Shown one piece after another: positions 1 through 15,224 of a stretch of 15,652 nucleotides of DNA; within the stretch, counting starts at the first letter, position 1; each line of letters begins with the position of its first letter. Below the pieces are notes generated by a model. That model saw only the letters and a program-made list of their open reading frames with translations, did not search any database and had not been told where the DNA came from. The DNA comes from Tolypothrix carrinoi HA7290-LM1 (GTDB taxonomy: Bacteria; Cyanobacteriota; Cyanobacteriia; Cyanobacteriales; Nostocaceae), in assembly GCA_019358935.1 (NCBI GenBank), contig JAHHIK010000154.1:1-15652 (forward strand), written 5' to 3'. The translations under genes and the position numbers were made by a program.

Positions 1-122
1 AATTGAAGACTTGCTTGATACTTTGCCGGAACCACTAAAAGAAAATATCACGGCGCTTGGTTAACCCTGCATCGTAGCTTTCATCCCCTGGCTAAAGCCA
101 AGGGGTTTTCAGCATACCTCTT
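1..122 (-). mobile_element. Left end of an IS200/IS605-family element (continues beyond window start)
   Basis: Minus strand reads TTAT|AAGAGGTATGCTG-AAAA-CCCCTTGGCTTTAGCCAGGGG: target tetramer TTAT (126-123), imperfect subterminal hairpin (85-105) and AAAA guide (109-106) directly 5' of it. NB-ARC-like sequence stops abruptly at this junction. Confidence 0.8.
2..64 (+). CDS. 3' end of a small protein inside the IS (IEDLLDTLPEPLKENITALG*), possibly a ribbon-helix-helix-type accessory protein; 5'-truncated by window
   Basis: Open frame from base 2 to TAA at 62-64, ending just before the IS hairpin. IEDLLDTLP resembles the C-terminal helix of small RHH-like proteins I recall from cyanobacterial IS605-type elements. 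Only 20 codons are visible. Confidence 0.45.
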   Translation: MEDLLDTLPEPLKENITALG

Positions 123-491
123 ATAACGTTTTTGCTGGAGAGTTTGACAAATTGCAATAATTAACTCATCCTCATCTTTGGGTGTTGGTTTTCCCAATTC
201 ATCCAACAACCAACCACCCCAAACCGCAAAAGAATAATTTAGGGAAAATGTCGTCCACAGCACTTGTTCAAAGCCTTGTGCTGCTTCGCACACCTTCGCT
301 ATCAGTGAAGACTTGCCAAAACCCCCTGCTGCCGTCACACCAATTAGGCGAACCTTTTGAGATTGTAGCAATTGTTGTATCTCAGCCAGTTCTTTCTCTC
401 GTCCTTGCCAATGGCTGGTATCAGGCAGAAGCGAGTTAAGAAAAGAACTAAGGGCAGTTGACTTTATCCGTTGCCCTACGGACGACTCCAG
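123..491 (-). pseudogene. N-terminal part of an NB-ARC/STAND NTPase (NLR-like), in frame with the upstream ORF and interrupted by the IS200/IS605 end
   Basis: Frame is open from 491: LESSVGQRIKSTALSSFLNSLLPDTSHWQGREKELAEIQQLLQSQKVRLIGVTAAGGFGKSSLIAKV...LQQKRY. It has the GRExEL motif, a P-loop (AAGGFGKS) and the KRY that normally precedes Walker B (LLVLD), which is replaced by IS sequence. The ORF-track start (TTG 371) lies downstream of the GRE motif. Confidence 0.85.
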
Positions 492-495
492 TCAA
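451..495 (-). other. Predicted RNA pseudoknot 8 nt downstream of the in-frame TGA (candidate readthrough stimulator)
   Basis: TGA(494-492)-CTGGAGTC-GTCCGT(483-478)-AGGGCA(477-472)-ACGGAT(471-466)-AAAGTCAAC-TGCCCT(456-451). Stem 1 is GTCCGT/ACGGAT (one G-U pair); loop AGGGCA is complementary to TGCCCT; TTGACT(495-490) can also pair with AGTCAA(463-458). Confidence 0.6.
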
Positions 496-935
496 TCTTT
501 TGGCGGAGTGCCATAATAGTTATGGGTATCCCCAAACTGATTGGTATTGTTATCACCCATTTTAGTTTGATAACCCTTACCACCGTAAATATTCTGAGTT
601 TGGCTGCTATTATCTTCAACTCGGTTAATATTGATTTCATGAGCGATCGCTCGAATTTCCGCAGCAAATTCGGGATCTTCTTTCATTTCATCTTCTAAAT
701 ATATCGCCAATCGCTGCAAATCTTCCTCGGAACCTTTTTCAACCGCAGCTACAGCACCGATAGCCCTACTATTTCCCCGTAGCTTATCTAATATTTTGTT
801 ACGCAGTTCGTCCATTTTCGTCAGCGCTGTCTCGGTAAATTTTTCACCCAACTTACCCACGCTGGACTCAAAGAACTTTTTGAAGGCGAATTTGGCTATT
901 GCTAGCGCTGTAATGGTGGTTACGGGGTCAACCAT
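492..935 (-). CDS. ~147-aa helical protein with C-terminal amyloid-like motif (Bell-like domain plus BASS/RHIM-like motif), putative NLR-associated effector
   Basis: ATG at 935 preceded by GAGGA. N-terminal hydrophobic/amphipathic helix (MVDPVTTITALAIAKFAFKKFF), charged helical body, and a tail SQTQNIYGGKGYQTKMGDNNTNQFGDTHNYYG rich in N/Q/G/T/Y. Directly upstream of an NB-ARC frame. The CDS is well supported; the family call is less certain. Confidence 0.75.
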   Translation of the reverse strand: MVDPVTTITALAIAKFAFKKFFESSVGKLGEKFTETALTKMDELRNKILDKLRGNSRAIGAVAAVEKGSEEDLQRLAIYLEDEMKEDPEFAAEIRAIAHEININRVEDNSSQTQNIYGGKGYQTKMGDNNTNQFGDTHNYYGTPPKD

Positions 936-1061
936 CTGTAAATTCCTCAAGACTTAGTTTGAGTTTATAACTGTTTATAGGTGTAATACAGTCTTGAGTG
1001 GCGATATTCCCTAAACTTTTTAGAATTGGGAAGGGAAAAGAAGCAGACAGGATGCATAAAA

Positions 1062-1266
1062 AACACAAGTTCGTTGGTTCAGAACACAAGTTCGTTGGTT
1101 CAGAACACAAGTTCGTTGGTTCAGAACGCAAGTCCGTTGGTTCAGAACACAAGTGTTTTGGTTCACAACGCAAGTTCGTTGGTTCAGAACACAAGTGTTT
1201 TGGTTCAGAACACAAGTGTTTTGGTTCAGAACACAAGCGTGTTGGTTCACAACGCAAGTCAATTGG
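1062..1266. repeat. 21-bp tandem repeat, 9 full units plus a partial unit (consensus about AACACAAGTTCGTTGGTTCAG)
   Basis: Units start at 1062, 1083, 1104, 1125, 1146, 1167, 1188, 1209, 1230 and 1251 (partial). No spacers between units. Confidence 0.97.
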
Positions 1267-1273
1267 CAACGAA

Positions 1274-1360
1274 ATCAATTATCGCTTGGCGATCGCCTAA
1301 CGACACTTCCTTATCATCTTCCCGCGTCATCACCACCGTTGCCCCTCGTTTTACCAACTC
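1274..1360 (-). pseudogene. Short internal fragment of an N-acetylmuramoyl-L-alanine amidase (Amidase_3) gene
   Basis: Translates as ELVKRGATVVMTREDDKEVSLGDRQAIID, matching the Amidase_3 pattern L..G..V.MTR..D..VSL..R. Similarity is lost on both sides, and a stop follows at 1261-1259. Confidence 0.75.
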
Positions 1361-1407
1361 AGTGTTTCCCCTTGGGGAATTACATAAGGCAGACAATGAC
1401 CATTAAA

Positions 1408-2250
1408 CTAATAAACTAAAGTTTGAACAGGTGGGTGTATTTTGCAATAAGTTAACTCTCCAGCACTCCAAGAATCGTATTTTTGGGAAGATATAGCTTT
1501 GAAGAAAACCTCTTCGCATTCCTTTCCATGAAGTTCAATAGCAATGTAGTTAACTTTGTTTAACCATTCCTGGTAATTACACGAAAAAACTGACAATTCT
1601 GCTTTTTCAATATCAACTTTGAGAATATCAACTTTATCAATCTTAAACTGTTCAAATACACTCTGGATGTCTATAGCATTCAAGTCCGGAGTTTCTCCTT
1701 CTTTGCAAGGTCTTACTTCAATCCCCCACTCTCCATTATCTTGTAATGGTCTATCAACAACCAATCCAACTTTACTAGACCAAACAGCTGATTTGAGCAG
1801 ATTGGCACGTTTGCCGTAAGGAGCAAGATTTAGAGAGCAAAGCTCAAAGTTATCAGGATCGGGTTCAATAACAATGATACGAGCTTGGGGATATTTGTTC
1901 AAGAAATAGACAGCAGAATAACCTACATTGGCTCCACAGTCAACAATCCAGTTGACATTCTCAATGTTTCCCACTCCAGAATACTCTTCCTCAATAAAAA
2001 TCTGATTAAATACCCAACTATCACTCGTTCCATAGCGACAATAAACTGGATATTGAAGCGTTTTTACAGATAAATGAAGTTTCTTACCTTTGATGTTAAT
2101 TCCCAGTCGAGAAAGAAAGGGGTAAAACAAAGATTTTAATTTGTAGGTAATTGCTTGCCAAATTCCTATCTTTTCACATGCTTTGAAAAAGAATTCACCT
2201 AATGATTTACTTTTAATCTGCTGAGTTTTTGGCTGTTCAATTGGGTTCAT
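1408..2250 (-). CDS. FkbM-family SAM-dependent methyltransferase
   Basis: 280 aa with IVDCGANVG, IEPDPDNF, ILKVDIEKAE and IAIELH motifs; AAGGA upstream of the ATG. Confidence 0.92.
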   Translation of the reverse strand: MNPIEQPKTQQIKSKSLGEFFFKACEKIGIWQAITYKLKSLFYPFLSRLGINIKGKKLHLSVKTLQYPVYCRYGTSDSWVFNQIFIEEEYSGVGNIENVNWIVDCGANVGYSAVYFLNKYPQARIIVIEPDPDNFELCSLNLAPYGKRANLLKSAVWSSKVGLVVDRPLQDNGEWGIEVRPCKEGETPDLNAIDIQSVFEQFKIDKVDILKVDIEKAELSVFSCNYQEWLNKVNYIAIELHGKECEEVFFKAISSQKYDSWSAGELTYCKIHPPVQTLVY

Positions 2251-2272
2251 ATATTTCCTTAAATTCTGGATA

Positions 2273-2322
2273 TTTAAACGCAGAGTAATACAGAGGTAAG
2301 CGCTGAGGTACGCAAAGTTTTT
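2273..2322. repeat. Intergenic short dispersed repeat, copy A
   Basis: 42/50 ungapped identity to 9341-9390; built from ACGC(A/T)GAGGT-like subunits. Confidence 0.8.
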
Positions 2323-2340
2323 ATTTAGTCCTTGGTCTAA

Positions 2341-4500
2341 TTATTTTGCCCAAGGCATTGGTTCAATTGGCTCAAATGAGGTTGTCATTTTATAAGTGCA
2401 ATTTGTTTCTAAAGCGTTATGTATGGCAAGTACAAGTTCGTTGTTGTGCAGAGAAAATTCTGCTGAAAGTCGGGGAGAACGTTGTTGTGCGATCGCTGAT
2501 GCCATTTCTGCTACACCTCGGCAAAAATCCATTTTGTGAGCTCCTCTATATCCCAATCGCGGGGCTTTTTTTGCTAGGGGTAATGATTGCTTCCAAATGC
2601 CTTCCCAGCGCTTGTAACCGATGTTTATACTGCGTCTGATATAAACTTGCGCTCCATAAAACCAAGCGTCATCAATGCCCAGCACGCCTTCATCACCGAT
2701 AATTTTTAATGAGTGGTCATGAGGTGCAATAATACTGCATGTCAGCCTTGCAACTACGCCTGAGGCGAACTTGATGCAAGCTACGGAAAAGTCGGGAGCG
2801 TTAATATCTAATTTGACATCGGTTTCTTTATCTGGTATAATGCATGAGGAAAATGCACTGACGATTTCCGCTGGTCCAAAGAATGCAGTCAGCCAGGTGA
2901 CATAGTAACCTGCATGTTCTAAAGTGCATCCAACTTCAAATTCGTCTTTATAGGGCCAAGGTGTGCCTGATTCATTTAACCATTTGCTGTATGGCATTTT
3001 GTGGACAAGTCCATCGTCCATTTCTGCATAAACAAGTCGAACTTTACCAATTTGATTTTCTCGCAAAGCTTTCCACACGGTTTGTGCTGTTTCGCTCAAC
3101 AAGCTGCATGGTGCGGAAGAAAGATATAAACCGCGCTGTTTAGCTAAGTTGACGAGTTCGTGTGCTTGTGACATCTCCATTGCTAAAGGTTTCTCAGAAT
3201 AAACGTGTTTACCTGCTTCTAAACAAGCTTTGGAAACTGCATAATGGCTGCTAGGATTTGTCAGATTTAAGACGATATCAACTTTTGGGTCTTTGAGAAT
3301 TTCCTCAAGGGAATCATAAATATGGGGAACGTTATAAAAGGCAGCAAATTTAGATGAGCGATCGCTAATTCGATCCATTACTCCCACTAGTTCTAATTGC
3401 GGATGAAGTGGTAATGTTTGCAAATAATAATCTGCAACAAAACCACTACCCACAATCGCAATATATTTCTTCTCTTTTGCGGAAACTGCGGAAGTAAAAT
3501 TATTTGAATTTGCGCTTTTATACTCAACTATAGTGCGCTGTTTATTTAACAACCGAGAAACGTGAAATTTAATTTGACCTTGTAGTTGTGGGAATTTGTC
3601 CAACGCACAAAACACAGAATAGGAAATTGCATCTCTAGATTTATATCCGCGTTGTCGCCAATACCGATACATGCGGTAAATTAACAACGTATAAGCGATT
3701 ATCAATAGTAAAATGCTGAATCCCCAAGTAAACCAAGCGGTAGCGATCGCTAACAAAGGTAAAAGCAAACCCCATAACCAAATACTGCGACTTTCTTTTA
3801 CCCAATGTTTTTCTGGGGTGGAACCGTGTAACCACGCACCTTCAGCATAAGCGTGACCACCACGAAGCGATCGCTTCCACCACTGACTCAAGCGAGTAAT
3901 TTGAGCATCGTGCAATGTCATCTCGGCATCGATCCGCAAAACCTTCCCACCTGCTTGACGCAACCGCACGCACAGTTCTGGCTCTTCACCAGCAATTAAA
4001 GTTGAATTGAACCCCCCAACCTTTTTGAATGCCTCCACGCGCATCATAGCGTCGCCTCCACAAGCTTTCGCCTCACCAACGGGAGTATCCCATTCCATGT
4101 TGCAAAAGCGATTATAAATCGAGTTAGCTGGAAATTCTTCCCGCCGCCGACCACACACTACTACAACGTCAGGATGGGCAATTAATTCATCTACGGCACG
4201 TTTCAACCAGTTTTCAACTACGCGACAGTCCCCATCGACAAATTGAACAAATTCAATGCTTGGTTCAAGTTCTAATAGAGCTGCAAATCCGGCATTTCTC
4301 GCACGAGCGGCAGTAAAGGGAACTGATAAATCAAGCTTGACTACATGGACACCGAAGGATTTTGCTAGCTCGACACTATTATCTGTGGAGCCAGAGTCAA
4401 CATAAACAATTGCTCTACCTTCACCTACTACTGAAAGCAAGCAATTTTTGAGACGATTTCCTTCATTGCGTCCAATAACAACTACTCCAATTTGATGCAT
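2341..4500 (-). CDS. Fusion of a family 2 glycosyltransferase (N-terminal) and a Gfo/Idh/MocA oxidoreductase (C-terminal)
   Basis: 719 aa. GT2 motifs VIGRNEG, YVDSGSTD, FVDGD and GEEPEL, then TM helices and ...IVEYK. After a linker: Rossmann IAIVGSGFVA, NLTNPSSH and HVYSEKPLA. GGAG RBS before ATG 4500. Confidence 0.92.
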   Translation of the reverse strand: MHQIGVVVIGRNEGNRLKNCLLSVVGEGRAIVYVDSGSTDNSVELAKSFGVHVVKLDLSVPFTAARARNAGFAALLELEPSIEFVQFVDGDCRVVENWLKRAVDELIAHPDVVVVCGRRREEFPANSIYNRFCNMEWDTPVGEAKACGGDAMMRVEAFKKVGGFNSTLIAGEEPELCVRLRQAGGKVLRIDAEMTLHDAQITRLSQWWKRSLRGGHAYAEGAWLHGSTPEKHWVKESRSIWLWGLLLPLLAIATAWFTWGFSILLLIIAYTLLIYRMYRYWRQRGYKSRDAISYSVFCALDKFPQLQGQIKFHVSRLLNKQRTIVEYKSANSNNFTSAVSAKEKKYIAIVGSGFVADYYLQTLPLHPQLELVGVMDRISDRSSKFAAFYNVPHIYDSLEEILKDPKVDIVLNLTNPSSHYAVSKACLEAGKHVYSEKPLAMEMSQAHELVNLAKQRGLYLSSAPCSLLSETAQTVWKALRENQIGKVRLVYAEMDDGLVHKMPYSKWLNESGTPWPYKDEFEVGCTLEHAGYYVTWLTAFFGPAEIVSAFSSCIIPDKETDVKLDINAPDFSVACIKFASGVVARLTCSIIAPHDHSLKIIGDEGVLGIDDAWFYGAQVYIRRSINIGYKRWEGIWKQSLPLAKKAPRLGYRGAHKMDFCRGVAEMASAIAQQRSPRLSAEFSLHNNELVLAIHNALETNCTYKMTTSFEPIEPMPWAK

Positions 4501-4543
4501 GTTTATCTCCGTAGCGAATTTAAAAATGTAGAATTAGATTCGG

Positions 4544-5194
4544 TCAGGCAGATGGAAACGGTCGATAAACAGCGTAGGATTTTTCTAATAAGAGCTTTCG
4601 CTCAATGTAAAGGCTGGAATCTGGAAATAGTTCAGTCATCTGCTTTCGAGAAATTACTGTTGTGCCTTTTACCATTTCTGTCCAAACTGGTAACTTTTTC
4701 TCCCAAGAGCGGTGCAGACTTTCGCGCACAGATTGCGGTAAATTCCAGTAGAATAATACACCGCTGTGGGGTTCGAGGGGCCAGCGATCGCTTGGAGTTT
4801 GTACCCAGTAACCTTGACCTAATCGACGCACTTCAGCGGCAAAAGCAGCTTGCTTTTCTTCGTTGCCTACGTGTTCAATTACAGAGTTGCTAAACACAAT
4901 ATCAAAGGATTTATCTGCGAAGGTATTTGATAAATTAGTGGCATCACCTTCAACAAAGGTAAAATCGCCAATTTTCCCGGTAGTTGTATAGGAACCTGGT
5001 AGGTTAACTAAGGTTATATCAAAGTCATGGTCGAACCACTTCCACATATTTGGGAATCCACCCAAGTCAATAATTCTAGCTTTTTTTGGAGGCTTGACCA
5101 GATCCAGAAATTGTTTCATTCGTTCTGTTCGCCAACTTTTACCGAAGGAATTGTCTTTAACCCAAATTGATGCTTTGGCATAAGCTATATGCAT
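4544..5194 (-). CDS. Class I SAM-dependent methyltransferase
   Basis: 216 aa with IIDLGG, VEGDAT and FDIVFSNSVIEHVG motifs; GAGG upstream. Confidence 0.88.
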   Translation of the reverse strand: MHIAYAKASIWVKDNSFGKSWRTERMKQFLDLVKPPKKARIIDLGGFPNMWKWFDHDFDITLVNLPGSYTTTGKIGDFTFVEGDATNLSNTFADKSFDIVFSNSVIEHVGNEEKQAAFAAEVRRLGQGYWVQTPSDRWPLEPHSGVLFYWNLPQSVRESLHRSWEKKLPVWTEMVKGTTVISRKQMTELFPDSSLYIERKLLLEKSYAVYRPFPSA

Positions 5195-5271
5195 TTGAAA
5201 AACCTCTCTTATGTAGATTCAATTGATATTAATAATTTTTGTGGCAGATGAGTTTTGATATTTTTTTGAGA

Positions 5272-5309
5272 ACGAACCGCGACCGACGCAAAGAGCGCAG
5301 AGAGAAGAG
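5272..5309. repeat. Intergenic short repeat element (ACGCAAAG/GCGCAGAG subunits ending GAAGAG)
   Basis: ACGAACCGCGACCGACGCAAAGAGCGCAGAGAGAAGAG; similar to the reverse complement of 10155-10192. Confidence 0.55.
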
Positions 5310-5361
5310 TAAAAGAGAGTTATTACGAATGATTGGTTAGATTGCAGATAATTTATTAGTT

Positions 5362-6600
5362 TTATCCGGAGTTCAATTTTTTATGTGGTTTCTTTGGCAT
5401 TGCTGAGAGAGCAGTAGTGATGTACATGACAAAATAAATGTTAGCTAATCTGCTAAAATAACTTTCCATCATATTATTTAATGTCAAAAATAATAATACA
5501 GCTAGGGGCCAATAGTCTTCGGGATTTTTCGACCCATAAGCAAATTTTAGAGCGCGATTATAAACAAGAATAAAGCTAATTATAAAAAGCGATAAACCGA
5601 TAAGACCGCTATCAAGAATTAAATCAATGTAGCCGTTATGAGCATGAGGTGGAAGATAGCCTTCTGATACTGCTTGACCGGCAGCGATCGCAAACTTACT
5701 ACCCTTTGCCCAAAATGCACCGCGTCCAAATCCCAGCCAAGGTCGCTCTTCTAATTGAGTGAATATAAAATGCCACATGGGTAAACGTCCTGTCAAAGTG
5801 ACATCTTTTCCCAAGCCACTTAAAATAGATACCCAGAAAGTTAAAACTATTGTTGAAATAGATCCAAGAATTAAAATTCCAATATCTAAATAAACTAAGC
5901 TAATTTTTCCTCGCCAACGATAGTTACGATAAAAGTATAAAATAAATATAATAATTAAAGAAATAATTAAAGAAGTTTTGGAATTTGATAGCGGTATCAT
6001 CGATATAGATAGCAAAAATAAACCCCATTTATATAGGCGTTGTTTTTGATTTTCGCACTTGAGTAAATAAAATGCTAAAGAACTTAAAACCATCATACTG
6101 CCAAAAGTATTTTTATAATCATAAATTCCTTTCCATACTCCTGGGTGGTCGTAAATATGCTTGCCTATAGTTGGGTATCGAAAGACAACAAATATACTAA
6201 AAATAACTCCTAAAGCTAAAGTTGTAGCCACAAGTTTTAATTGCTGTTTCACGCTATAACTGGTAGCAAAATATAAGCCAAATGTTAGCATTTGCCATAT
6301 TTCCTGCATATTTTTGAGGGTGAAGTCTGGATACTCAGACCAAACATAGGATGTTAATATTATTAATACCAACATCAAGATAAATACGTCACGAGTGATT
6401 GCGACTAAGGCTTTCTTCCAGCGGACGCAAATTAAAAAGGCGGAAATTGCCCAAACAGAATATCTAATCGCTGTCACAAAAACTACCGGAAGTAAGCCGG
6501 GAGCATCTCCGTTTCTACCAACATCAAAGCCTCTGGTAAAAAAAGTTAAACTTATAATTACAAATATTTGTTCAGCTAGTTCTAAATATTTTCTTTTCAT
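5362..6600 (-). CDS. O-antigen ligase / Wzy-family polysaccharide polymerase
   Basis: Multi-TM protein with WKGIYDYKN, SNSKTS, TLTGRLPMW, PWLGFG and HAHNGYID motifs. ATG at 6600 preferred over TTG at 6609. Confidence 0.9.
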   Translation of the reverse strand: MKRKYLELAEQIFVIISLTFFTRGFDVGRNGDAPGLLPVVFVTAIRYSVWAISAFLICVRWKKALVAITRDVFILMLVLIILTSYVWSEYPDFTLKNMQEIWQMLTFGLYFATSYSVKQQLKLVATTLALGVIFSIFVVFRYPTIGKHIYDHPGVWKGIYDYKNTFGSMMVLSSLAFYLLKCENQKQRLYKWGLFLLSISMIPLSNSKTSLIISLIIIFILYFYRNYRWRGKISLVYLDIGILILGSISTIVLTFWVSILSGLGKDVTLTGRLPMWHFIFTQLEERPWLGFGRGAFWAKGSKFAIAAGQAVSEGYLPPHAHNGYIDLILDSGLIGLSLFIISFILVYNRALKFAYGSKNPEDYWPLAVLLFLTLNNMMESYFSRLANIYFVMYITTALSAMPKKPHKKLNSG

Positions 6601-6641
6601 AATAATCAACTAATAATTTCTGGGACTTGATTAGCCCAAGT

Positions 6642-7949
6642 TTAAATTAATGTTAGATATTGTTTAATTAAGTCACTTCGGTGTGTAAAAACAACTTGTT
6701 CGTCGAACTGCTGACCAGATAATGCAGCCTGAGAAATTAACTCACTCAATTTTGCTCGGTCTAAATTGAGTTGAACCATCAAATAAGCTAGCTTTTGCCA
6801 ATCATTCATCGGCACAAATGCACCACCACCGTATTCTGATACAAGTCCTTCCGGGTAGAGACTGCTGTAACCGACTATCGGACAACCACAAACTAAAGAC
6901 TCAACTAAACATCGAGGTGATTCTGGGGTTTTGTGGCAAAACAGAAAGATATGATGTTTTTTCATCGTCTCTAAAAGTTTGTTTTGGTCATCAACAAATC
7001 CAGCGAAATGGACTTGCTCGGCAATACCCAATTTATCGGCAAGAGATTTCATTTCCAAAAGCAATGGTCCGTCACCAAGCCAAGTGGCTTGGATGTTAAC
7101 GCCAACTTGTACCAGACGATGTACCACTTTTAACCAGTCGAGGGGTCCTTTCATTTCGGCAGCTCGTCCTGCGTAGCAAATCAACAAAGGTTCATTTTGT
7201 AATAGTGAATTTATCTTTTGATTAAGACTGAAAGCATCAATGAGATCGGATTTTTTCGTATGAATGTCGTAAACACAATGAGGATTTTTGCAGAAAGGTG
7301 AATATGCCGAATAGCAGTCCTGTCCTTGAAAAAGTCCTAGGTGGGAACGACTAACTAAGTATTGCTGATAGGGTTTGAGAAACAAAAGACTGAAAAAATC
7401 TTGGAAGCGACGCTTGAGTGATGTTTTGTTATTTTTGTTGAATGTTCTTAGCATGACTTCGTATTCAACGCGATCTGCCCAGATAGAATAAGGTCGTTTG
7501 AGTTTGATGGCTTCCAGACAAGCGATCGCTCCCCAATCTCCAATAATTCCGCAAATGGCAAAACAAAGATATTCACACTCTTGGATCTTTGCAGTCAGTA
7601 GTTGAGATATGCTCTTGAAAGTTTGAATGAAGTCTGGCAATTTGTAAGCATAAGGCAGGGGAACTAATTCTAGTCGATCTGCACAAGGCAAATCGGCGAT
7701 CGCTTTCCATGTCGTTGAAGTCTGAGTTTTTTCGGTTATGTGTTCTGGCATCAAAGGACAAGCCATAACAACGCGATCAAAATTTTCTGCCCAACGAATC
7801 AAACCGTCGCAGGTTTGCTCATCAAATCCTAGGCGTCCTTTTACTTTCACAAACGGGACAGGCATTACTAATAAAATTTTCTTTTCGATTGCAGAAGTTT
7901 TATTAGTAAAAATTTTATTGTTAGGTTCAACTCTAAGTTTTTCAATCAT
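6642..7949 (-). CDS. GT-B fold glycosyltransferase (family 4-like)
   Basis: 435 aa with YAGRAAEMKG, WLGDGPL, VHFAGFV and ESPRCLVESLVCGCPIV motifs. Confidence 0.88.
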   Translation of the reverse strand: MIEKLRVEPNNKIFTNKTSAIEKKILLVMPVPFVKVKGRLGFDEQTCDGLIRWAENFDRVVMACPLMPEHITEKTQTSTTWKAIADLPCADRLELVPLPYAYKLPDFIQTFKSISQLLTAKIQECEYLCFAICGIIGDWGAIACLEAIKLKRPYSIWADRVEYEVMLRTFNKNNKTSLKRRFQDFFSLLFLKPYQQYLVSRSHLGLFQGQDCYSAYSPFCKNPHCVYDIHTKKSDLIDAFSLNQKINSLLQNEPLLICYAGRAAEMKGPLDWLKVVHRLVQVGVNIQATWLGDGPLLLEMKSLADKLGIAEQVHFAGFVDDQNKLLETMKKHHIFLFCHKTPESPRCLVESLVCGCPIVGYSSLYPEGLVSEYGGGAFVPMNDWQKLAYLMVQLNLDRAKLSELISQAALSGQQFDEQVVFTHRSDLIKQYLTLI

Positions 7950-7984
7950 GACTGCCAGTTCATCTTTACTAAAATCTGATTTCG

Positions 7985-9274
7985 CTAGATTGAGGTATTT
8001 GTAATTAGCGACTTGAATTTTCTGTTAGTTTTTAAATTTGACACAGTACAAGTCTGTTGATAAATCTCTAGAATGCGGTCGATTTTGCGTTCCCAGTCAA
8101 AATGCTGACGGACGCGCTCTTGTCCAGCACGACCCATTTGCGATCGCAACTCTGGATAATGTGCAAGTTTCAGCATGGCATCTGTGAATCCATTAATTAA
8201 TGCTTCGGTGGAAGTCGGTTCAATTAAAATCCCACAGGTTGCATCCAAATAATCCGCTGGACCACCCCATTTAGTTGCAATTACTGGTAATCCCATTGCC
8301 ATTGCTTCTAAAACCACTGCTCCGCCACACTCCAACAAACTCGGCAGAACTAGCGCCGATGCTTGTTCTAGCCTGATAGCGCACTCTTTTTGAGACAGCC
8401 AGCCAAAAAATTTCACTCGCTCCCCCAAGCCTAAATTCACAGCTTGAGCTTCTAATTCTTGCCGCAAATTCCCATCGCCGATAATTTCCAAACAAGCATC
8501 TGTTTCGGCGGCAACACCTTGAAAGGCTTCTATCAGTAATTCTACGGCTTTCCAGTCTACTAGCCGACCAATAAACACAAACTTCGCAGCCTCTGATGGT
8601 ATCTTTTCGGCTGCGAGGAGTTGCCACACGGACAAATCCACGCCGTTTTCTACCAATTCGATAACAGTGCCACTTATCCCTGAAGGTAGTGCTTGTTTTG
8701 TGCGTTCATTGGCAACTAGCAAAGTCTGTGCCTGAAGTTTACCGGGCATCACACGATTCCAGATATCTGCCAGTTGTCGCCCCAGTGAAATCGTTAATTT
8801 GGCGCTTTTGCTCTCGCGATCGCGAAAGGCGGGAGGGTATTCTATATCACCATTCATCGGACCGATGACAACCGGTGCGCCGACACCGTACATCAGCGAA
8901 GGAAATTTGGGGGAAACTGGTATCGGTTCATGCACTACATCTATGTTGTGTTGTAGCACCAGTTTCCGAACTATCGAGCGTTGGATGTTTTGCGTATACA
9001 GATGACTGATTAACCCTGTTGTCATCACTGCTACCCGTGAGGGCAAAAACTGCCCGAAACGCCAGAGAAACTTATGTATCCAGGTATCGCTGACAAAGTA
9101 CATGCGATCGCATTCTTTTGGCAAAAGTGATTGTAGTTCAGCTTGGGTGCGACCGTGAACTACTAACCACGCTTCGATGTTGCGATCGCGTAGTAACCTG
9201 AAGTAGTTTAGCGGCAGAAACGCCTCACCACCAAATTGACTGGAAGCGTGTTCAGCAACAATCACAACTCGCAT
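7985..9274 (-). CDS. Family 4 glycosyltransferase
   Basis: 429 aa with FIGRLVDWKA, IIGDG and LPSLLECGGAVVLEAMAMGLPVI (E-x7-E) motifs. Confidence 0.93.
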   Translation of the reverse strand: MRVVIVAEHASSQFGGEAFLPLNYFRLLRDRNIEAWLVVHGRTQAELQSLLPKECDRMYFVSDTWIHKFLWRFGQFLPSRVAVMTTGLISHLYTQNIQRSIVRKLVLQHNIDVVHEPIPVSPKFPSLMYGVGAPVVIGPMNGDIEYPPAFRDRESKSAKLTISLGRQLADIWNRVMPGKLQAQTLLVANERTKQALPSGISGTVIELVENGVDLSVWQLLAAEKIPSEAAKFVFIGRLVDWKAVELLIEAFQGVAAETDACLEIIGDGNLRQELEAQAVNLGLGERVKFFGWLSQKECAIRLEQASALVLPSLLECGGAVVLEAMAMGLPVIATKWGGPADYLDATCGILIEPTSTEALINGFTDAMLKLAHYPELRSQMGRAGQERVRQHFDWERKIDRILEIYQQTCTVSNLKTNRKFKSLITNTSI

Positions 9275-9340
9275 CTTGAGGTTCCTTGTAAAACGGTAGG
9301 TGCAATCGAGTAGTTAATCAGCTTTGCGTAAAAGCGCATT

Positions 9341-9390
9341 TTTAAACGCAAAGGTACGCTGAGGTACGCGCTGAGGTACGCAGAGTTTTT
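9341..9390. repeat. Intergenic short dispersed repeat, copy B
   Basis: TTTAAACGCAAAGGTACGCTGAGGTACGCGCTGAGGTACGCAGAGTTTTT; 42/50 identity to 2273-2322. Confidence 0.8.
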
Positions 9391-9416
9391 CCGCATTTTA
9401 ATGTACAATTTGATAC

Positions 9417-10121
9417 TTATATTTTCTTTTGCATAACCACAATAAAATCTGTAAGTTCAGCATCAACCTTGCCAAAAGTCAATGCTTTGACAACTGGTGA
9501 CATCATTTTCCATCCTCTATCGATTAGCCAATGACGCGATCGCAGTTTTTTCTGTCTGGGATTTTCATAAACATGCAAGCGTTCTATTGACAAATCATTT
9601 TCCGCTGCAAATTGCCTGATAGCTTCTGGTGAAATCGAAAACCGCAAATATGTTTTAAAAGGTAAACGGTCATCAACTCCCGCTAGCTTTTCTCCAAAAA
9701 TATATTTATAAAACCAAACATGAAAAGCATGGGGTGTAAACTTTGTCACCAATCCTTTCAAAGACATGACATTGGGAATTGCCACAATCATAATACCATC
9801 TTTCTTCAATGCTTTACGGCAATTATCAAGGACTTTTTCCGGATTGGAAAGATGTTCTAAAACCCACCAACAAACAATCAAATCAAACTCAGACTCTGGC
9901 AAATCATAACTTTCTACATCCGCCAAAATCTTTTCATTTAAAACCTCGTTTCTATCAAGTTGCTTTTGTGAGATATCAAGCCCAACTATATAAGAATTTG
10001 CCGGAATTTCAATATGAGAACAAGAGCCACAGCCAATTTCCAACACCTTAAAAGGTTGACGCTGCCAAATTAACTTCTCAACAACTGATTGCAACTTCGG
10101 GTCTTCTTCGAGTACTACCAT
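9417..10121 (-). CDS. Class I SAM-dependent methyltransferase
   Basis: 234 aa with VLEIGCGS, GLDIS and FDLIVCWWVLEHL motifs; AAGGAG RBS. Confidence 0.92.
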   Translation of the reverse strand: MVVLEEDPKLQSVVEKLIWQRQPFKVLEIGCGSCSHIEIPANSYIVGLDISQKQLDRNEVLNEKILADVESYDLPESEFDLIVCWWVLEHLSNPEKVLDNCRKALKKDGIMIVAIPNVMSLKGLVTKFTPHAFHVWFYKYIFGEKLAGVDDRLPFKTYLRFSISPEAIRQFAAENDLSIERLHVYENPRQKKLRSRHWLIDRGWKMMSPVVKALTFGKVDAELTDFIVVMQKKI

Positions 10122-10154
10122 GTAATCTCTCCTTAATTAAATTATGCAAAATTG

Positions 10155-10192
10155 CTCTTCTTCTTTGCGTCTTAGCGTCTTTGCGTGAGAAA
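10155..10192. repeat. Intergenic short repeat element
   Basis: Minus strand reads TTTCTCACGCAAAGACGCTAAGACGCAAAGAAGAAGAG, three ACGC(A/T)AAG 8-mers in tandem. Confidence 0.65.
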
Positions 10193-10197
10193 ACCCT

Positions 10198-11421
10198 TTA
10201 TCCAACAGGTTTATTAATTTCCCGCTCAGTACGCACCCAACTGCTTTGAGGTTGAACCAAAAACTTCAGATAAAGCGGAATCTTCCAAAAAATGTAAAAA
10301 GGAATAGTTAATAATTCCCCCAAAGGCAAATCTTGACTACCAAACTTCACCCAAGCTGTAAAAATTGCTGTTAGCAGAAACAACCCGGCTGTAGCTAACA
10401 AAATCGCTGGCATCCACAAAGCCGCCAAGACTCCAAACAGCAGTGAACTCGTCATCAGCGCCAACCAAATAACCACAAGTAAAGATAAAGGTGGCAGGGA
10501 CATATCTAAAGCGCTCATCAACAAATCTAATCTTTGTTGATGTATTGCTGCTTTAAATAACAAGGGTACATAAGTTAGTAAAGTTTGTAAATGTCCGTGT
10601 TCCCAACGAGTTCTTTGACTGGTAACAGCACGCTTTTGCTGGGGAAAATTCCCGGTAATATTTGCTTGTGGACAGAAAATTGGTGGGTGTCCAGCTATGG
10701 TCAAATCCAAGCTTAGTTTCATATCTTCAACGATGTAACCATTGGCTAAATCAACCGAACGAATGACAGACCAAGGAAAAGCCATTCCTGTACCGGTTAA
10801 TAAACAAGGTAGTTTCAATTGAGTTAATCCACGCAGACGAACTAAATTTTTCACCTTGAAAGCAAATACTGAGATTGATTCTTTAGGGCTAGAATTAGTG
10901 GGTTTTGCCATCAAATAGGTAGCTTGCACGGGTCTTTTTGTGGCGATCGCACTCTGAGTTAAAGAAGCGATCGCACCAATATGAACTCTACAGTCAGCAT
11001 CAACAAACACAACGACATCTGGTGGATCGCAAGAAAGAAACCGCAAGCCATAATCAAGAGCGTATCCCTTACCGCGCAGCATCAAATCGTGACGCTCGAT
11101 GACTGTAGCACCCGCAGCAGATGCAATTTCCGCCGTGCGATCGCTGCAATTGTCAGCAATTACTATTAAGCGATGTTCGTTTTTTAATTGTGATTTGATG
11201 TCTAGTAGTGTCGAACCAATGACCAATTCTTCATTGTGTGCTGGAACTAACACCGCAACTTTAGGATTTTGACTTCCATTCGCAACACAAGCAAGTGGAA
11301 ACAAAGCCGCGATACATTCCCCCAGCAAAACTAAGCTGAGAATTACCAACCCTAATGCACTAATTAACAAAACAGCATCAACGAATAAAACCGCAAACTG
11401 GTTAATTGACATTTGTTGCAT
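10198..11421 (-). CDS. Membrane-bound family 2 glycosyltransferase with QxxRW motif
   Basis: 407 aa with N-terminal TM, VPAHNEE, ADNCSD, GKGYAL, FVDAD, VED and QRTRW motifs, plus C-terminal TMs. Confidence 0.93.
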   Translation of the reverse strand: MQQMSINQFAVLFVDAVLLISALGLVILSLVLLGECIAALFPLACVANGSQNPKVAVLVPAHNEELVIGSTLLDIKSQLKNEHRLIVIADNCSDRTAEIASAAGATVIERHDLMLRGKGYALDYGLRFLSCDPPDVVVFVDADCRVHIGAIASLTQSAIATKRPVQATYLMAKPTNSSPKESISVFAFKVKNLVRLRGLTQLKLPCLLTGTGMAFPWSVIRSVDLANGYIVEDMKLSLDLTIAGHPPIFCPQANITGNFPQQKRAVTSQRTRWEHGHLQTLLTYVPLLFKAAIHQQRLDLLMSALDMSLPPLSLLVVIWLALMTSSLLFGVLAALWMPAILLATAGLFLLTAIFTAWVKFGSQDLPLGELLTIPFYIFWKIPLYLKFLVQPQSSWVRTEREINKPVG

Positions 11422-11448
11422 CCTAAATTGGTTACTTAGTCAAGCTGT

Positions 11449-12051
11449 TTATAGCTGACTGAGTTCACCGATATCAAATTTGTGATGATTGTCAGAATTA
11501 ATGATTTTTGCCGGAATACCAACTGCTGTTGCTCTTGCCGGAACATTACTTAAAACTACAGCATTCGCACCAATATTTACATCATCTCCAACAGTGATGT
11601 CACCAAAAATTTTTGCACCAGCACCAACATTGACACGTTTACCTAACTTTGGTGCATCAAGCGGACGATTTAAATAACGATTACCTAAAGTAACACCTTG
11701 GCGAATAATACTTTCATCGCCAATTGAAGCGTATCCATGAATTACAATTCCTCCTTGGTGTTCAATAATTACGCGACGACCAAGTTGGACAGTAAACGGT
11801 AGCTCAATTCCATAGGTATTGCGAACTTTCCGAAATAACATTTTATATAAAATGCTGAACGGTGCCCGCACAAATTTGGATTTAATTTTCATTGTCCAAA
11901 CACCAAAACGGTGAACTGCTACTGCGCGAAATCCTGGTTTAGTCCAATCTCGTCCATGAGCAATCCAGTCTTCTTTCACAAGCTGCCAAAGACTTAAAGT
12001 AAAAAGTTCCGCCTCGCTTGCAGTTGCTCTCCCAAAGGGTAATGCACTCAT
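11449..12051 (-). CDS. Hexapeptide-repeat O-acetyltransferase (serine-acetyltransferase-like / WcaB-like)
   Basis: 200 aa with GIELP, IEHQGGIVI, IRQGVTLG, VGAGAKI, IGANAVV and VGIPAK left-handed beta-helix motifs; located within the EPS cluster. Confidence 0.88.
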   Translation of the reverse strand: MSALPFGRATASEAELFTLSLWQLVKEDWIAHGRDWTKPGFRAVAVHRFGVWTMKIKSKFVRAPFSILYKMLFRKVRNTYGIELPFTVQLGRRVIIEHQGGIVIHGYASIGDESIIRQGVTLGNRYLNRPLDAPKLGKRVNVGAGAKIFGDITVGDDVNIGANAVVLSNVPARATAVGIPAKIINSDNHHKFDIGELSQL

Positions 12052-12114
12052 CGCTCTTGTTCCTATTTCAGTTTTTTATGAATAAGCTCGCGAGTTTTTT
12101 CAACTTCTCACTAA

Positions 12115-14301
12115 TTAAGGTATCGACGCAGTATCTACTTTTTCCACACCGTTTTCTGAGCGGTAGCTATTGTAGTAAAAATAGTTATCAGGCTCGTGCT
12201 TCACATTAACCGCATTGGCAACAATTCCTAAGATATTAGCTTCAGAACGTGCCAGTAAAGATTTAGCAGCAGTAGCAGTATTTGAATCAACAACGCCCGG
12301 TCTAACGACAATTAAAACTCCGTCTACCATGTTGCCTAAAACTGCTGCATCGGCAGTTCCCACAAGGGGCGGAGTGTCAAAAATTACGTAATCGTAACTT
12401 TGAGATAACATGTCTATAAAGGATGTCATGCGTTCTGAATCAATTAACGCTAAGGGATTGGGAGGCATGACTCCAGCAGTTAGTACAGATAAATTGCTTG
12501 TTATTCTTTGTACTGATTTTGAAAATTCATTTTCTCCAACCATGACATTACTTAAACCGACTGAGTTTATTAAACCCCAGAGGTGATGTTGGGAGGGCTG
12601 ACGCATATCTGCATCAACTAACAAAACTCGTCGTCCAGCTAAAGACATTACCGCAGCTAAATTAGCAGCAACTTCTGTTTTTCCCTCCCCAGAAATAGAA
12701 CTCGTGACTACAATTGCAGAAACTTTTCTATCTAAGCTAATAAATTTCAGATTTGCTTGCAGCATTTGGTATGCTTCGTGAATTACAGTACGCGGAGAAG
12801 TCGCCACAATAATTCGCTCTGAAACTTTTTCTAAGCTTCTATCTAGAGGAGTAGATGTATTATTATTTTCAATTTTAGGAATTAGCCCTAACAAGGTATA
12901 GCCAAAAAGCGCTTCAGCTTCTTTAGTTGTCTTCAATCTTCTATCAATTAAGTCAACAAAAAAGGCAGATGCTACGCCCAAAAGTAAACCAACAAATCCG
13001 CTACCTAATGTGATTACAAATGTCTTTCTTTTTACTGCTGCACTGGGGGCAACTTTAGCATATTCGACTACTTTAGCATTGCCTACAGTTTGATTTTCTG
13101 CTACTTGAATTTCTTGTTGTCTTGTCAAAAGGTTTTCGTAACTTTTTTGGGCAATTGATAGTCCTCGTTCTAAATCTCCTTCTTGTTTTTCTAAATTTGG
13201 CATCACCTCGGCTCTTCTTTTATAAGAAGCTATAACCGCAGATAAAGCTTCTACTTTTTTTTCTAAACCTAAGCGTTGTGACTGTAATCTGACAAAATCT
13301 GATGTTAAGTTTTGCTTGATTTCCCCCATTTGCAATTTCCCAGGAGCAATCGCAGCTTTATATCCTAAAGATTGAGATATTTGCTGTTGCAATAAAGAAT
13401 TTATATTTGCTTCTTGACTTTCGAGATCGACGATGGCTGGATGTGTTTCTGTATAACGAGCTTTCAAAGCTGCTAGTTGAGTTTCTACCTTTTGCAGTTC
13501 AGCTAAAAGTCCCTGCACACCAGGTATTTGACTTAATGAAGTGATATCCACCGCTTGATCTACAGGTAAATTCATTTGACGGCGTATTTGTATTTCCTGA
13601 GCACTTGCATCCGCTAATTCCGAACGAGCTTTGGCTAATTCATTCTCGGCATCACTGATATTTTTCACTGATGCTCTTGTTTCTTCTGCAAGTTCGAGAA
13701 TTTGATTTTTTAGCTTAAATTCTCGCAAAGCTTCTGCTGCTTTCTCTAATTGTGCTTTAGCTCGTGGCAATTCTTTTTCAATGAATGCACCGGCGGAGAT
13801 AGCTTGAGTTCGATTACTAAGAATGTTATTGGCAATGTAAGATTTCATCACCTGATCGACTATTGCTTTAGCCGATTCCGGATTGTCAGATGTGTAAGAA
13901 ACTTTCAGGACATCAGTACCGACAACTGCTTCCGTCTTGATAGAAATTGCATCTGGACTCAAAGGATTGCCCTTTTTATCTTTTAAATTGAGGGTTTTGA
14001 TCACGTCTAGGATGACCGGCTCAGACTGCATTACTATCGCTTGCGTGTCTAAAGGATTAGCCTCACGTTTGACGGATTCAAGATGCCCTATTTTTTCGCC
14101 TACTCCCGTCAGTGATGAAGTTTGGTTGGATTGGAAAAGAAGTTTTCCACTTCCTTCGTAAACGGGTGGTTGCATAACGAAATTAATTCCACCAAGGGTA
14201 GCAAAAACTGCAAACACTCCTGAAGCTATCAGCCAGCGACGTTTGAGAACTAGCAAATATTTTTGAACATCTATCTCTTCAGGATAGTTTTTTGTCTCCA
14301 T
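12115..14301 (-). CDS. wzc: Polysaccharide co-polymerase / tyrosine autokinase (Wzc/GumC family)
   Basis: 728 aa: two TMs flanking a coiled-coil region (YTETHP), Walker A SGEGKT, A' VDADMRQP, B IFDTPP, and a C-terminal Tyr cluster NYFYYNSY. Confidence 0.95.
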   Translation of the reverse strand: METKNYPEEIDVQKYLLVLKRRWLIASGVFAVFATLGGINFVMQPPVYEGSGKLLFQSNQTSSLTGVGEKIGHLESVKREANPLDTQAIVMQSEPVILDVIKTLNLKDKKGNPLSPDAISIKTEAVVGTDVLKVSYTSDNPESAKAIVDQVMKSYIANNILSNRTQAISAGAFIEKELPRAKAQLEKAAEALREFKLKNQILELAEETRASVKNISDAENELAKARSELADASAQEIQIRRQMNLPVDQAVDITSLSQIPGVQGLLAELQKVETQLAALKARYTETHPAIVDLESQEANINSLLQQQISQSLGYKAAIAPGKLQMGEIKQNLTSDFVRLQSQRLGLEKKVEALSAVIASYKRRAEVMPNLEKQEGDLERGLSIAQKSYENLLTRQQEIQVAENQTVGNAKVVEYAKVAPSAAVKRKTFVITLGSGFVGLLLGVASAFFVDLIDRRLKTTKEAEALFGYTLLGLIPKIENNNTSTPLDRSLEKVSERIIVATSPRTVIHEAYQMLQANLKFISLDRKVSAIVVTSSISGEGKTEVAANLAAVMSLAGRRVLLVDADMRQPSQHHLWGLINSVGLSNVMVGENEFSKSVQRITSNLSVLTAGVMPPNPLALIDSERMTSFIDMLSQSYDYVIFDTPPLVGTADAAVLGNMVDGVLIVVRPGVVDSNTATAAKSLLARSEANILGIVANAVNVKHEPDNYFYYNSYRSENGVEKVDTASIP

Positions 14302-14408
14302 ACAAATTTCTTACTTGTAGATGAATGCGTGGTTGGAGTATCAATGAAATTGTCATGTGAATACTTTGAGTAAAAACTTGGATCAACTTTTATTGAAACT
14401 AAAAGTTT

Positions 14409-15224
14409 TTACATTTTTTTACTCTTTATCAAAGATGCGAGGTTACTACCCTTATGTCTCTTAACTGCTGACCAAGGATTTTCATAAAGCTGAAATCTTT
14501 GCTTCACAATTAGCCACAAAAATGGAATAGCATCCAACAGATACCTCTTCCAGAGTCGCTGAGGTTCGCTTAACAGCCGATAAAGCCACTCTAGACCAAC
14601 TTCACTCATCCACTTTGGCGATCGCTTGATATTACCTGCCTCAAAACCGATAGTTGCACCAATCGCCAAAAATACTTTCACATTCTTCAATTGCTTTCTA
14701 TACCTAGCAATCCACATTTCTTGTTTGGGTGCGCCTACACCAATTGCTAAAACTGTAGCATCTGAAAAGTTAATCAGATTAACAATCTCTTGACACTCCT
14801 CTTCATTTTTCTCAAATCCAAAGGACGGCGAGTGCGCCGCAACTATAATATCTCTACCTACCTTTGAATTAATTTTTTGTTGAGCTATCTTAACTACATC
14901 TGCCTCAGCGCCCAGCAAAAATATTTTGATTTTGTCATCATGCTGGTAATAATTGTAAAACGCTGGAAACAAATCTGAACCCGAAATTTTCTCCTGTATT
15001 GGTGTTCTCAAAAAACTCGATATATACATCAAAACTTTACTATCGCAAACTCTATAATCTGCCTCTTGGTAAACAAGATAAAAGTCTTGATTTTTCTGCA
15101 ATTTCATCACATGATCTACGTTTGGGGTAAACACAACACCACCGATTCGCAGATTTTCTAGCAATTCGACCATTGTGATGTTGTTGATGGTCACATTTAG
15201 TAAGTTAACCTGTCTCATCATCAC
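14409..15224 (-). CDS. WecB/TagA/CpsF-family glycosyltransferase
   Basis: FTPNVDH, ISGSDL, FLLGA, GVGAPKQE and GLEWLYRLLSEPQRLWKRY motifs. Start could be GTG 15224 or ATG 15221/15218. Confidence 0.95.
   Translation of the reverse strand: MMMRQVNLLNVTINNITMVELLENLRIGGVVFTPNVDHVMKLQKNQDFYLVYQEADYRVCDSKVLMYISSFLRTPIQEKISGSDLFPAFYNYYQHDDKIKIFLLGAEADVVKIAQQKINSKVGRDIIVAAHSPSFGFEKNEEECQEIVNLINFSDATVLAIGVGAPKQEMWIARYRKQLKNVKVFLAIGATIGFEAGNIKRSPKWMSEVGLEWLYRLLSEPQRLWKRYLLDAIPFLWLIVKQRFQLYENPWSAVKRHKGSNLASLIKSKKM

Follow-up and report, generated by a model that had tools for sequence, protein, structure and literature searches.

The window analysed here, 15,652 nucleotides (nt) of Tolypothrix carrinoi HA7290-LM1 (assembly GCA_019358935.1, contig JAHHIK010000154.1), raises the question why a gene for a small Bell-type effector ends on its minus strand in a TGA codon, when the same reading frame continues beyond this stop into an NB-ARC domain of the NLR type and a potential pseudoknot follows 8 nt behind it. 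Comparing the locus with its homologues, we found a conserved stop codon and pseudoknot at this place in many immune genes of cyanobacteria, and one such gene probably yields two proteins, a short one for cell death and a long one serving as sensor. Judged from these comparisons, the element is likely to be a portable signal for programmed stop-codon readthrough. If a version that depends on a factor acting in trans is included, programmed readthrough becomes very likely.

The element in the window

The minus strand from 495 to 451 reads T TGA CTGGAGTC GTCCGT AGGGCA ACGGAT AAAGTCAAC TGCCCT. The in-frame TGA (492..494, minus strand, as are all parts of the element), followed by C, ends an open reading frame (ORF) of 147 amino acids (aa). 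Behind it lies the 8-nt spacer CTGGAGTC (484..491), whose length is fixed across the named cyanobacterial pattern matches listed. Stem 1 is formed by GTCCG (479..483), which covaries in homologues, and CGGAT (466..470), with 91.9% of cells paired across the alignment. The strands of stem 2 are AGGGCA (472..477, conserved core 475-472) and TGCCCT (451..456, conserved core 456-453), where the window has C-G in place of the usual G-C. The 9-nt loop 3, AAAGTCAAC (457..465), contains a segment (463-458) that can pair with the stop in an alternative helix.

A sequence-only reading of this DNA had described the 8-nt spacer, the two stems and the 9-nt connector, and direct inspection of the sequence found each of them where it had been placed. 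The three 6-nt complementarities that it counted are all present, but stem 1 consists of five Watson-Crick pairs and one G-U, leaving two strict 6-bp stems. Its description of the surroundings as otherwise AT-rich needs correction: they are not strongly so, the local GC content being 45% against 32-49% over the window. In dinucleotide shuffles, a 6+6 pseudoknot with one G-U allowed per stem appeared in 18 of 3000, three distinct stems in 9 of 3000 and both together in 1 of 3000. Nested folding gave no unusual stability for the element (z -1.2), and a search of window positions 1-1400 against Rfam gave no match over it at E values up to 10. We rejected the 6+6 geometry as the structure of the family, the outer pairs failing in 55-56 of 64 distinct pattern-found sequences. 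By this comparison it is specific to the window allele, and the conserved core is 5 bp plus about 4 bp, with a loop 1 of 3 nt.

Conservation at loci chosen by protein

Because a set found by the pattern itself would be circular, loci were chosen without regard to the RNA. A profile of 31 upstream proteins gave 131 matches in 50 of 71 genomes of the family, from which 90 loci were taken, mainly the best-scoring ones (92 ORF ends, two of which were dropped, one from a long TPR ORF resembling Bell and one from a Bell with an internal break). We defined a cassette class by an in-frame continuation of at least 50 codons without ATG in the first 12. It comprised 59 of the 90 Bell ends, the other 31 not continuing in this way; the profile was built from cassette-bearing proteins, and this proportion is not the frequency among all Bell genes. 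Kinship among the 90 loci also inflates Fisher p-values.

The stop was TGA at 58 of 59 cassette ends against 6 of 31 others, and stem 1 was intact at 48 of 59 against 1 of 31, this one being a cassette with a frameshift. The full core geometry was found at 47 of 59 cassette ends, at none of the 31 others and at 152 of 4833 genome ORF ends. C followed the stop at 56 of 59 cassette ends, while TGAC is the rarest stop context in the source genome (56 of 2527 long-ORF stops). In the alignment of these loci (A3) the spacer has no gaps except in the outlier L213, and indels inside the element preserve the frame, including a 3-nt insert in 14 of 48 sequences.

Covariation and codon choice

Over the 59 cassette sequences, 89.1% of the cells of the 5+4 bp pseudoknot are paired. 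Double changes occur in eight of the nine pairs, in 50 cells against 14.7 after shuffling. The covariation score is 0.355 compared with 0.209 for shuffled alignments (reached by 0 of 500), and controls with slid partners gave at most 0.139. For stem 2 alone, 85.6% of cells are paired and all four pairs show a double change. Stem 1 occurs as GTCCG/CGGAC, GCCCG/CGGGT, GTCTC/GGGAC, GCCTG/CAGGT, GTCAG/CTGAC and GTCGG/CCGAC. When local register shifts were allowed, in a lenient best-match search that left out L213, stem 1 was complete in 51 of 58 sequences, and 53 had a crossing stem of 4 bp or more. For pair 2, about seven of eight independent contrasts on the Bell tree show a joint change and none an opposite one (p 0.016). 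We set aside covariation in the pattern-found set A1, part of which is fixed by the search pattern itself. Taken together, the alignments give strong support for stem 1 and moderate support for stem 2, with tree-aware significance for one pair only. The sequence-only reading had made its case depend on conservation and covariation of the stems in homologues; both were found, with compensatory changes across cyanobacterial families.

The compensations swap amino acids on both sides (Ser/Pro with Thr/Val), and the constraint therefore lies on the RNA. Codon choice points to the same constraint: serine at +3 is encoded by TCG in 37 of 37 cases (10% genome-wide) and lysine at +10 by AAG in 35 of 40 (28% genome-wide).

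The helix between stop and loop 3 is paired in 88-90% of cells and nearly invariant, with one or two double changes; by its geometry it would exclude stem 2. The complementarity that had been proposed to sequester the stop is present, but its covariation is weak. The further suggestion of two conformations finds the stop helix paired at 89.8%, but with two double changes this suggestion is weakly supported.

The reading frame behind the stop

In 13 of 14 pairs of loci, dN/dS (the ratio of nonsynonymous to synonymous change) over codons 61-330 of the downstream ORF is between 0.15 and 0.52, the last pair being nearly identical; by this measure the downstream ORFs are under purifying selection. 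There is no ATG, GTG or TTG before the NTPase domain at 19 of 49 loci, and none ahead of the NB-ARC start in the window. The modules on both sides vary. Behind the cassette we found NB-ARC-TPR (L059, L081, L043 and L039), NACHT (L089) and PsbP-like continuations, and ahead of it, besides Bell, CHAT and alpha/beta-hydrolase ORFs, both of which have been named as alternative BASS effectors (10.1101/2020.01.06.895854). With the stop, the 8-nt distance and both stems conserved behind in-frame stops and before unrelated downstream domains, the proposal of a cis-acting recoding element is well borne out by the comparison, readthrough being what we infer from it. The conserved stop and spacing and the compensatory stem changes also agree with the earlier view that this is no random nonsense mutation. 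The sequencing-run data consist of contigs with RNA shares of 0.05-0.11 and are uninformative on expression or strand.

Several cassettes, L012 and L069 among them, lead into ORFs without an NTPase. These continuations are PsbP-like (L069, L161) or consist of a hydrophobic segment and then a proline-rich region (L034, L248), which suggests membrane-linked sensors. At L036 and L064 the frame before the cassette has 38-62 codons and is essentially an amyloid-like motif alone; these frames may be minimal adaptors or broken Bells.

The effector and its amyloid motif

The effector ORF (495..935, minus strand; 147 aa, MVDPVT...PPKD) is the proposed short product. Its AlphaFold2 model has helices over residues 4-103 at a mean pLDDT of 61, and the effector has the MEP/MDP consensus N-terminus with a hydrophobic first helix. 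Pfam and NCBIfam assigned no family, and Foldseek, VIA-align and a PDB profile search gave no decisive match (best Z 6.5). Its matches in the ESM Atlas were unnamed cyanobacterial clusters, plus one cluster in which 12% of the members have HetE-N. The label Bell is provisional and rests on the architecture and the BASS tail.

This tail, an N/Q/G-rich C-terminal segment at approximately 507..635 (minus strand), resembles the amyloid signalling motif BASS9 and is by eye near-identical to Ccya03_s022, a member of the published Cya03 set, which corresponds to BASS9 (PMC8086366, supplement). The tails of cassette loci L043 and L021 are by eye identical letter for letter to s023 and s002 of this set, and the upstream tails thus belong to a published BASS family. 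A comparison of cassette tails with the NLR-side motifs from two-gene loci gave z of at least 4 for 14 of 59, and z 3.4 for the window tail.

In the published layout, the motif stands at the C-terminus of the effector and again at the N-terminus of the adjacent NLR gene (10.1101/2020.01.06.895854). We found the tail matched by the head of the next gene at 16 of 21 two-gene, non-cassette loci and at none of the 59 cassette loci; ten further non-cassette loci had no long ORF nearby. On this count the window locus does not qualify as a two-gene Bell-BASS/BASS-NLR pair. Across the loci compared, the cassette replaces the two-gene layout, and cassette and second motif copy are mutually exclusive. 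On the Bell tree, a quick unrooted one that leaves the direction open, the two layouts interleave with 16 changes, at least eight of them forced. Cassette loci carry the motif once, before the in-frame stop; most simply, their NLR would receive it through readthrough, and a single gene would give both proteins.

The Bell/BASS-NLR pairs (10.1101/2020.01.06.895854) and Bab/Agp (10.1101/2024.11.07.622273), as far as these texts describe them, share with our loci a small effector, probably helical in ours, with an MEP-type N-terminus and a C-terminal amyloid motif. Common to these systems and our loci are also the neighbouring NB-ARC/NACHT-repeat protein and the occurrence in filamentous cyanobacteria (same sources). 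The published layouts differ in having two genes with the motif twice, or one all-in-one protein, where our loci have the motif once before an in-frame stop. The words 'stop', 'readthrough' and 'read-through' do not occur in the main text of either paper; the figures or supplements of 10.1101/2020.01.06.895854 might list such loci.

Spread of the element

Of 61 related genomes searched by DNA, 11 had matches, the source genome included. In four full-length homologues (66-67% identity) both TGA and element are retained. Two loci match across the 34-38 nt of the element only, their upstream ORFs and downstream NTPases differing from those of the window. Among 401 genomes of the order, 9 contained a total of 10 sites for a pattern that includes the stop, each with TGA; the reversed control matched once.

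A pattern without the stop, scanned over genome contigs, gave at least 119 loci, 80 of them named and 39 unnamed; sorted by record title, the named loci among the matches listed were 46 cyanobacterial and 34 others. Among these matches a stop stands exactly 8 nt before stem 1 at all 46 named cyanobacterial loci (41 TGA, 5 TAG), at 18 of the 39 unnamed loci and at 1 of the 34 others, an 'uncultured bacterium' record identical there to L015. The named carriers include Nostoc, Scytonema, Brasilonema, Moorena, Prochloron, Pegethrix and a plasmid of Acaryochloris. In the Moorena records L038, L039, L085 and L078 the stop is TAG rather than TGA and in three of the four follows a longer ORF (an alpha/beta-hydrolase in L039), and L146 is a single TAA allele. 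A second stop-free pattern for the stem variant GCCYG had TGA in 16 of 18 metagenome matches, the remaining two being repeated sequence without stop or ORF. Viral contigs gave no match to the first pattern and nine to the second, all one repeated sequence without stop or ORF.

In 150 genomes of the phylum, a covariance model matched at 21 places, spread over 15 genomes. Whether such matches sit behind in-frame stops had been proposed as a check, and the 20 matches besides the window each lie behind a Bell-like ORF at a TGA, with new variants such as GGCGG/CCGCC; the model contains the stop, and part of its matches were in the training set. Outside the cyanobacteria, RNA model R1 gave no match in sets of 5, 121 and 121 genomes, the two larger ones centred on an Anaerolineales and a Peterkaempfera record, in searches that had no positive control and may miss diverged forms. 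A blastn search of PLSDB gave no match.

Proposed mechanism and alternatives

The model that we infer covers readthrough and its rate, the inserted residue, amyloid templating and a role in defence. At the UGA, translation would end for most ribosomes, giving the short effector-BASS protein. Others, fewer in number, would pause, since UGA-C is a poor context for termination and the pseudoknot 8 nt downstream would stand at the entry channel for mRNA. A near-cognate tRNA would then be accepted at the UGA, presumably inserting tryptophan, and translation would go on to an effector-BASS-linker-NTPase-repeat protein. This long form would be the sensor, carrying the same amyloid motif as the short form. 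Once activated, it would act as template for the short effector, the more abundant of the two, in the manner proposed for Bell/NLR pairs of two genes; templating and cell death are here carried over by analogy from Bab/Agp (10.1101/2024.11.07.622273, as far as described there).

Some observations weigh against this interpretation. The window copy is truncated and carries no information on present function. At 30 of 49 loci there is an in-frame start codon before the NTPase domain (19 with GTG/TTG only, 11 with ATG), at varying positions, and some cassettes open into short, non-NTPase or broken ORFs. Stem 2 is short, with few double changes (1-6 cells for each pair), and 5 of 58 sequences have it in weak form or lack it. 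On the Bell tree pair 5 changes together in about five of five contrasts at p 0.06, and contrasts on the NTPase tree are too few for significance.

Readthrough might also be conditional on a factor acting in trans, such as an RNA-binding protein, release factors or tRNAs changed by stress or phage, or A-to-I editing of the stop within the third helix (UGA or UAG to UGG). The pairing of the stop helix (88-90%), a loop 3 sequence conserved beyond the need of the protein, and the near-exclusive use of TGA and TAG as stops, either of which a single edit turns into TGG, would fit this. The weak covariation of the third helix, with two double changes, speaks against it, as do the TAA allele of L146 and three contigs from relatives, from RNA libraries or guessed to be RNA, that are unchanged at the stop (at low depth, and contigs drop rare variants). 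We regard dependence on such a factor as improbable. Somewhat less probable still is translational coupling, in which ribosomes terminate and re-initiate on the NLR while the structure regulates a hidden start. The first codon behind the stop is often CTG, GTG/TTG/ATG follow later at many loci, and RefSeq annotates a separate downstream gene in Acaryochloris marina pREB8. But the first codon is equally often CTA, or CCA, CAG or AAG; 19 of 49 loci have no start, and where one occurs its position is not conserved; conservation of the frame would be needless; and an NLR made in this way would be without the amyloid motif that two-gene NLRs keep. The RefSeq start in pREB8 lies about 50 codons past the stop and removes the conserved FVGR start of NB-ARC.

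A stop plus structure is also among the ingredients of ribosomal bypassing in T4 gene 60, so a hop or a frameshift over the stop has to be considered. We judge it very unlikely: the residues on either side of the stop are identical at 1 of 59 loci, 15 different kinds of codon precede the stop, and both other frames close quickly, +1 and -1 reaching 50 codons in 0 of 59. In bacterial selenocysteine insertion sequences (SECIS), a UGA is followed by a 3' structure inside the coding region, as here, although that structure is a hairpin rather than a pseudoknot. The source genome has no SelA (controls were positive) and no tRNA with a TCA anticodon among the ARAGORN calls, TAG and TAA alleles of the element occur, and genome-wide recoding of TGA is contradicted by the 493 of 2527 long ORFs that end in it. 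Selenocysteine or TGA recoding is thus largely refuted and has a negligible probability. Equally negligible is an inherited nonsense mutation or a DNA-level motif, such as a recombination site, with no RNA function; the shuffling of modules on both sides and the at least eight layout changes on the Bell tree would suit a DNA motif, whereas compensatory pairs with G-U intermediates, codon-registered spacing and purifying selection downstream would not be expected of it.

Programmed readthrough itself may be part of something larger, a mobile regulated recoding switch that would alternate between a stop-sequestering hairpin and the pseudoknot, be swapped among effector and sensor modules, and set the sensor-to-effector ratio, raised under stress or infection. 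We put this forward as a tentative and rather doubtful extension.

Two observations on the tRNAs of the source genome are added here. At C91:28540-28613 (L252), ARAGORN called a tRNA whose anticodon is CTA (amber) and whose acceptor stem is weak; it may be a pseudo-tRNA. An array of 23 tRNA genes lies at C183:6577-9684; a second tRNA-Trp belongs to it, as does a tRNA with an anticodon loop of 8 bases.

The window locus and its surroundings

Contig C154 of the source genome (G000) begins with the window. The in-frame continuation (123..491, minus strand) comprises the linker and the N-terminal part of NB-ARC (PF00931, E 8.8e-6, above the Pfam cut-off), with Walker A at about 332-309. In the close homologues L059 and L081 the frame runs on as NB-ARC and TPR. 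In the window the allele is truncated by an insertion sequence: positions 1..122 (no strand assigned) form the end of an IS200/IS605-like element present in multiple copies, whose insertion behind TTAT (126-123) cuts the gene before Walker B. The truncation follows from comparing this junction with an IS-free counterpart, a contig in sequencing run X5 that runs into LLVLDNLETL, the Walker B region. Neither this break by an IS, nor the published type of amyloid motif at the end of the upstream ORF, nor the replacement of the two-gene layout figured in the sequence-only reading. The source genome has 14 identical junctions, each after TTAT (window 1-122 and 13 other contig ends), and an end 76% identical to that of the window adjoins an OrfB_IS605/TnpB gene on contig C92. 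Identical ends with a TTAT target suggest a recent expansion of this element in the source genome. The remainder of the NLR was not found in the source assembly, whose smallest contig has 10,054 bases, and a search for longer fused forms of the window protein gave 0 of 771 candidates, which is weak evidence.

A decayed second cassette lies on contig C69 of the source genome at about 33,350-33,450 (L251), where a Bell-like ORF is followed by TGA; its spacer is one base short, stem 1 is damaged and the downstream frame is closed. Upstream of the Bell ORF, window positions 1062-1259 hold a tandem repeat of 9.4 copies of a 21-nt unit (consensus AACACAAGTGCGTTGGTTCAG, 88% matches). Positions 1408-15224 (minus strand) look by eye like a polysaccharide-synthesis gene cluster, in which we take a 719-aa ORF (2341-4500), by its appearance, to be a glycosyltransferase fused to an oxidoreductase.

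Relation to known readthrough signals

The likeness to murine leukaemia virus that had been pointed out holds for the arrangement of stop, 8-nt spacer and pseudoknot, with the knot beginning at +12 in both (PMC13517186, in the passages on this virus). According to these passages, gag-pol of Moloney murine leukaemia virus (MoMLV) has an in-frame stop, an 8-nt spacer and an H-type pseudoknot that starts from +12 with G; also shared with our element are a GUC near the 3' end of the spacer, a sequence that encodes protein at the same time, and a conserved loop able to pair back toward the stop, like the third helix here. Our element differs in its location on a bacterial chromosome or plasmid, its context (mostly UGA-CUR against UAG-GG), its length (about 31 against 50 nt), its stems (5 plus about 4 bp against a 7-bp G-C stem 2) and its loop 3 (9 against 18 nt). 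The gammaretroviral readthrough family has UAG, a G-rich spacer (G1, G5) and a 50-nt knot at a gag-pro junction; with UGA-CUR, a knot of about 31 nt and no match in Rfam, membership of our element in that family was rejected. The likeness to MoMLV probably reflects convergence.

The context UGACUA/UGACUG is shared with alphaviruses and their relatives, and the coat gene of phage Q-beta gives 3-5% UGA readthrough on bacterial ribosomes in a different context, UGAACU (both as given in the relevant passages of PMC13517186). These passages name no conserved pseudoknot for a bacterial case. In the literature searched, which left out most subscription papers, the element is undescribed.

If the reading is true, a readthrough pseudoknot of the retroviral style is present in many bacterial chromosomal genes, and its variants would form a natural allelic series of a signal of about 45 nt, in which it can be asked how a downstream structure beats release factor 2. 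Annotation can split and shorten such NLRs, as in A. marina pREB8, and versions cloned for defence assays may be without their signalling end. Should the regulated switch exist, amyloid NLR signalling would have a third architecture, and pseudoknot-programmed readthrough would occur in cellular bacteria. The reading would also account for the many Bell-BASS genes of cyanobacteria that lack a motif-bearing NLR partner: the partner would be the same gene read further. Such a one-gene layout would guarantee an identical amyloid motif in both proteins, probably with the effector in excess of the sensor.
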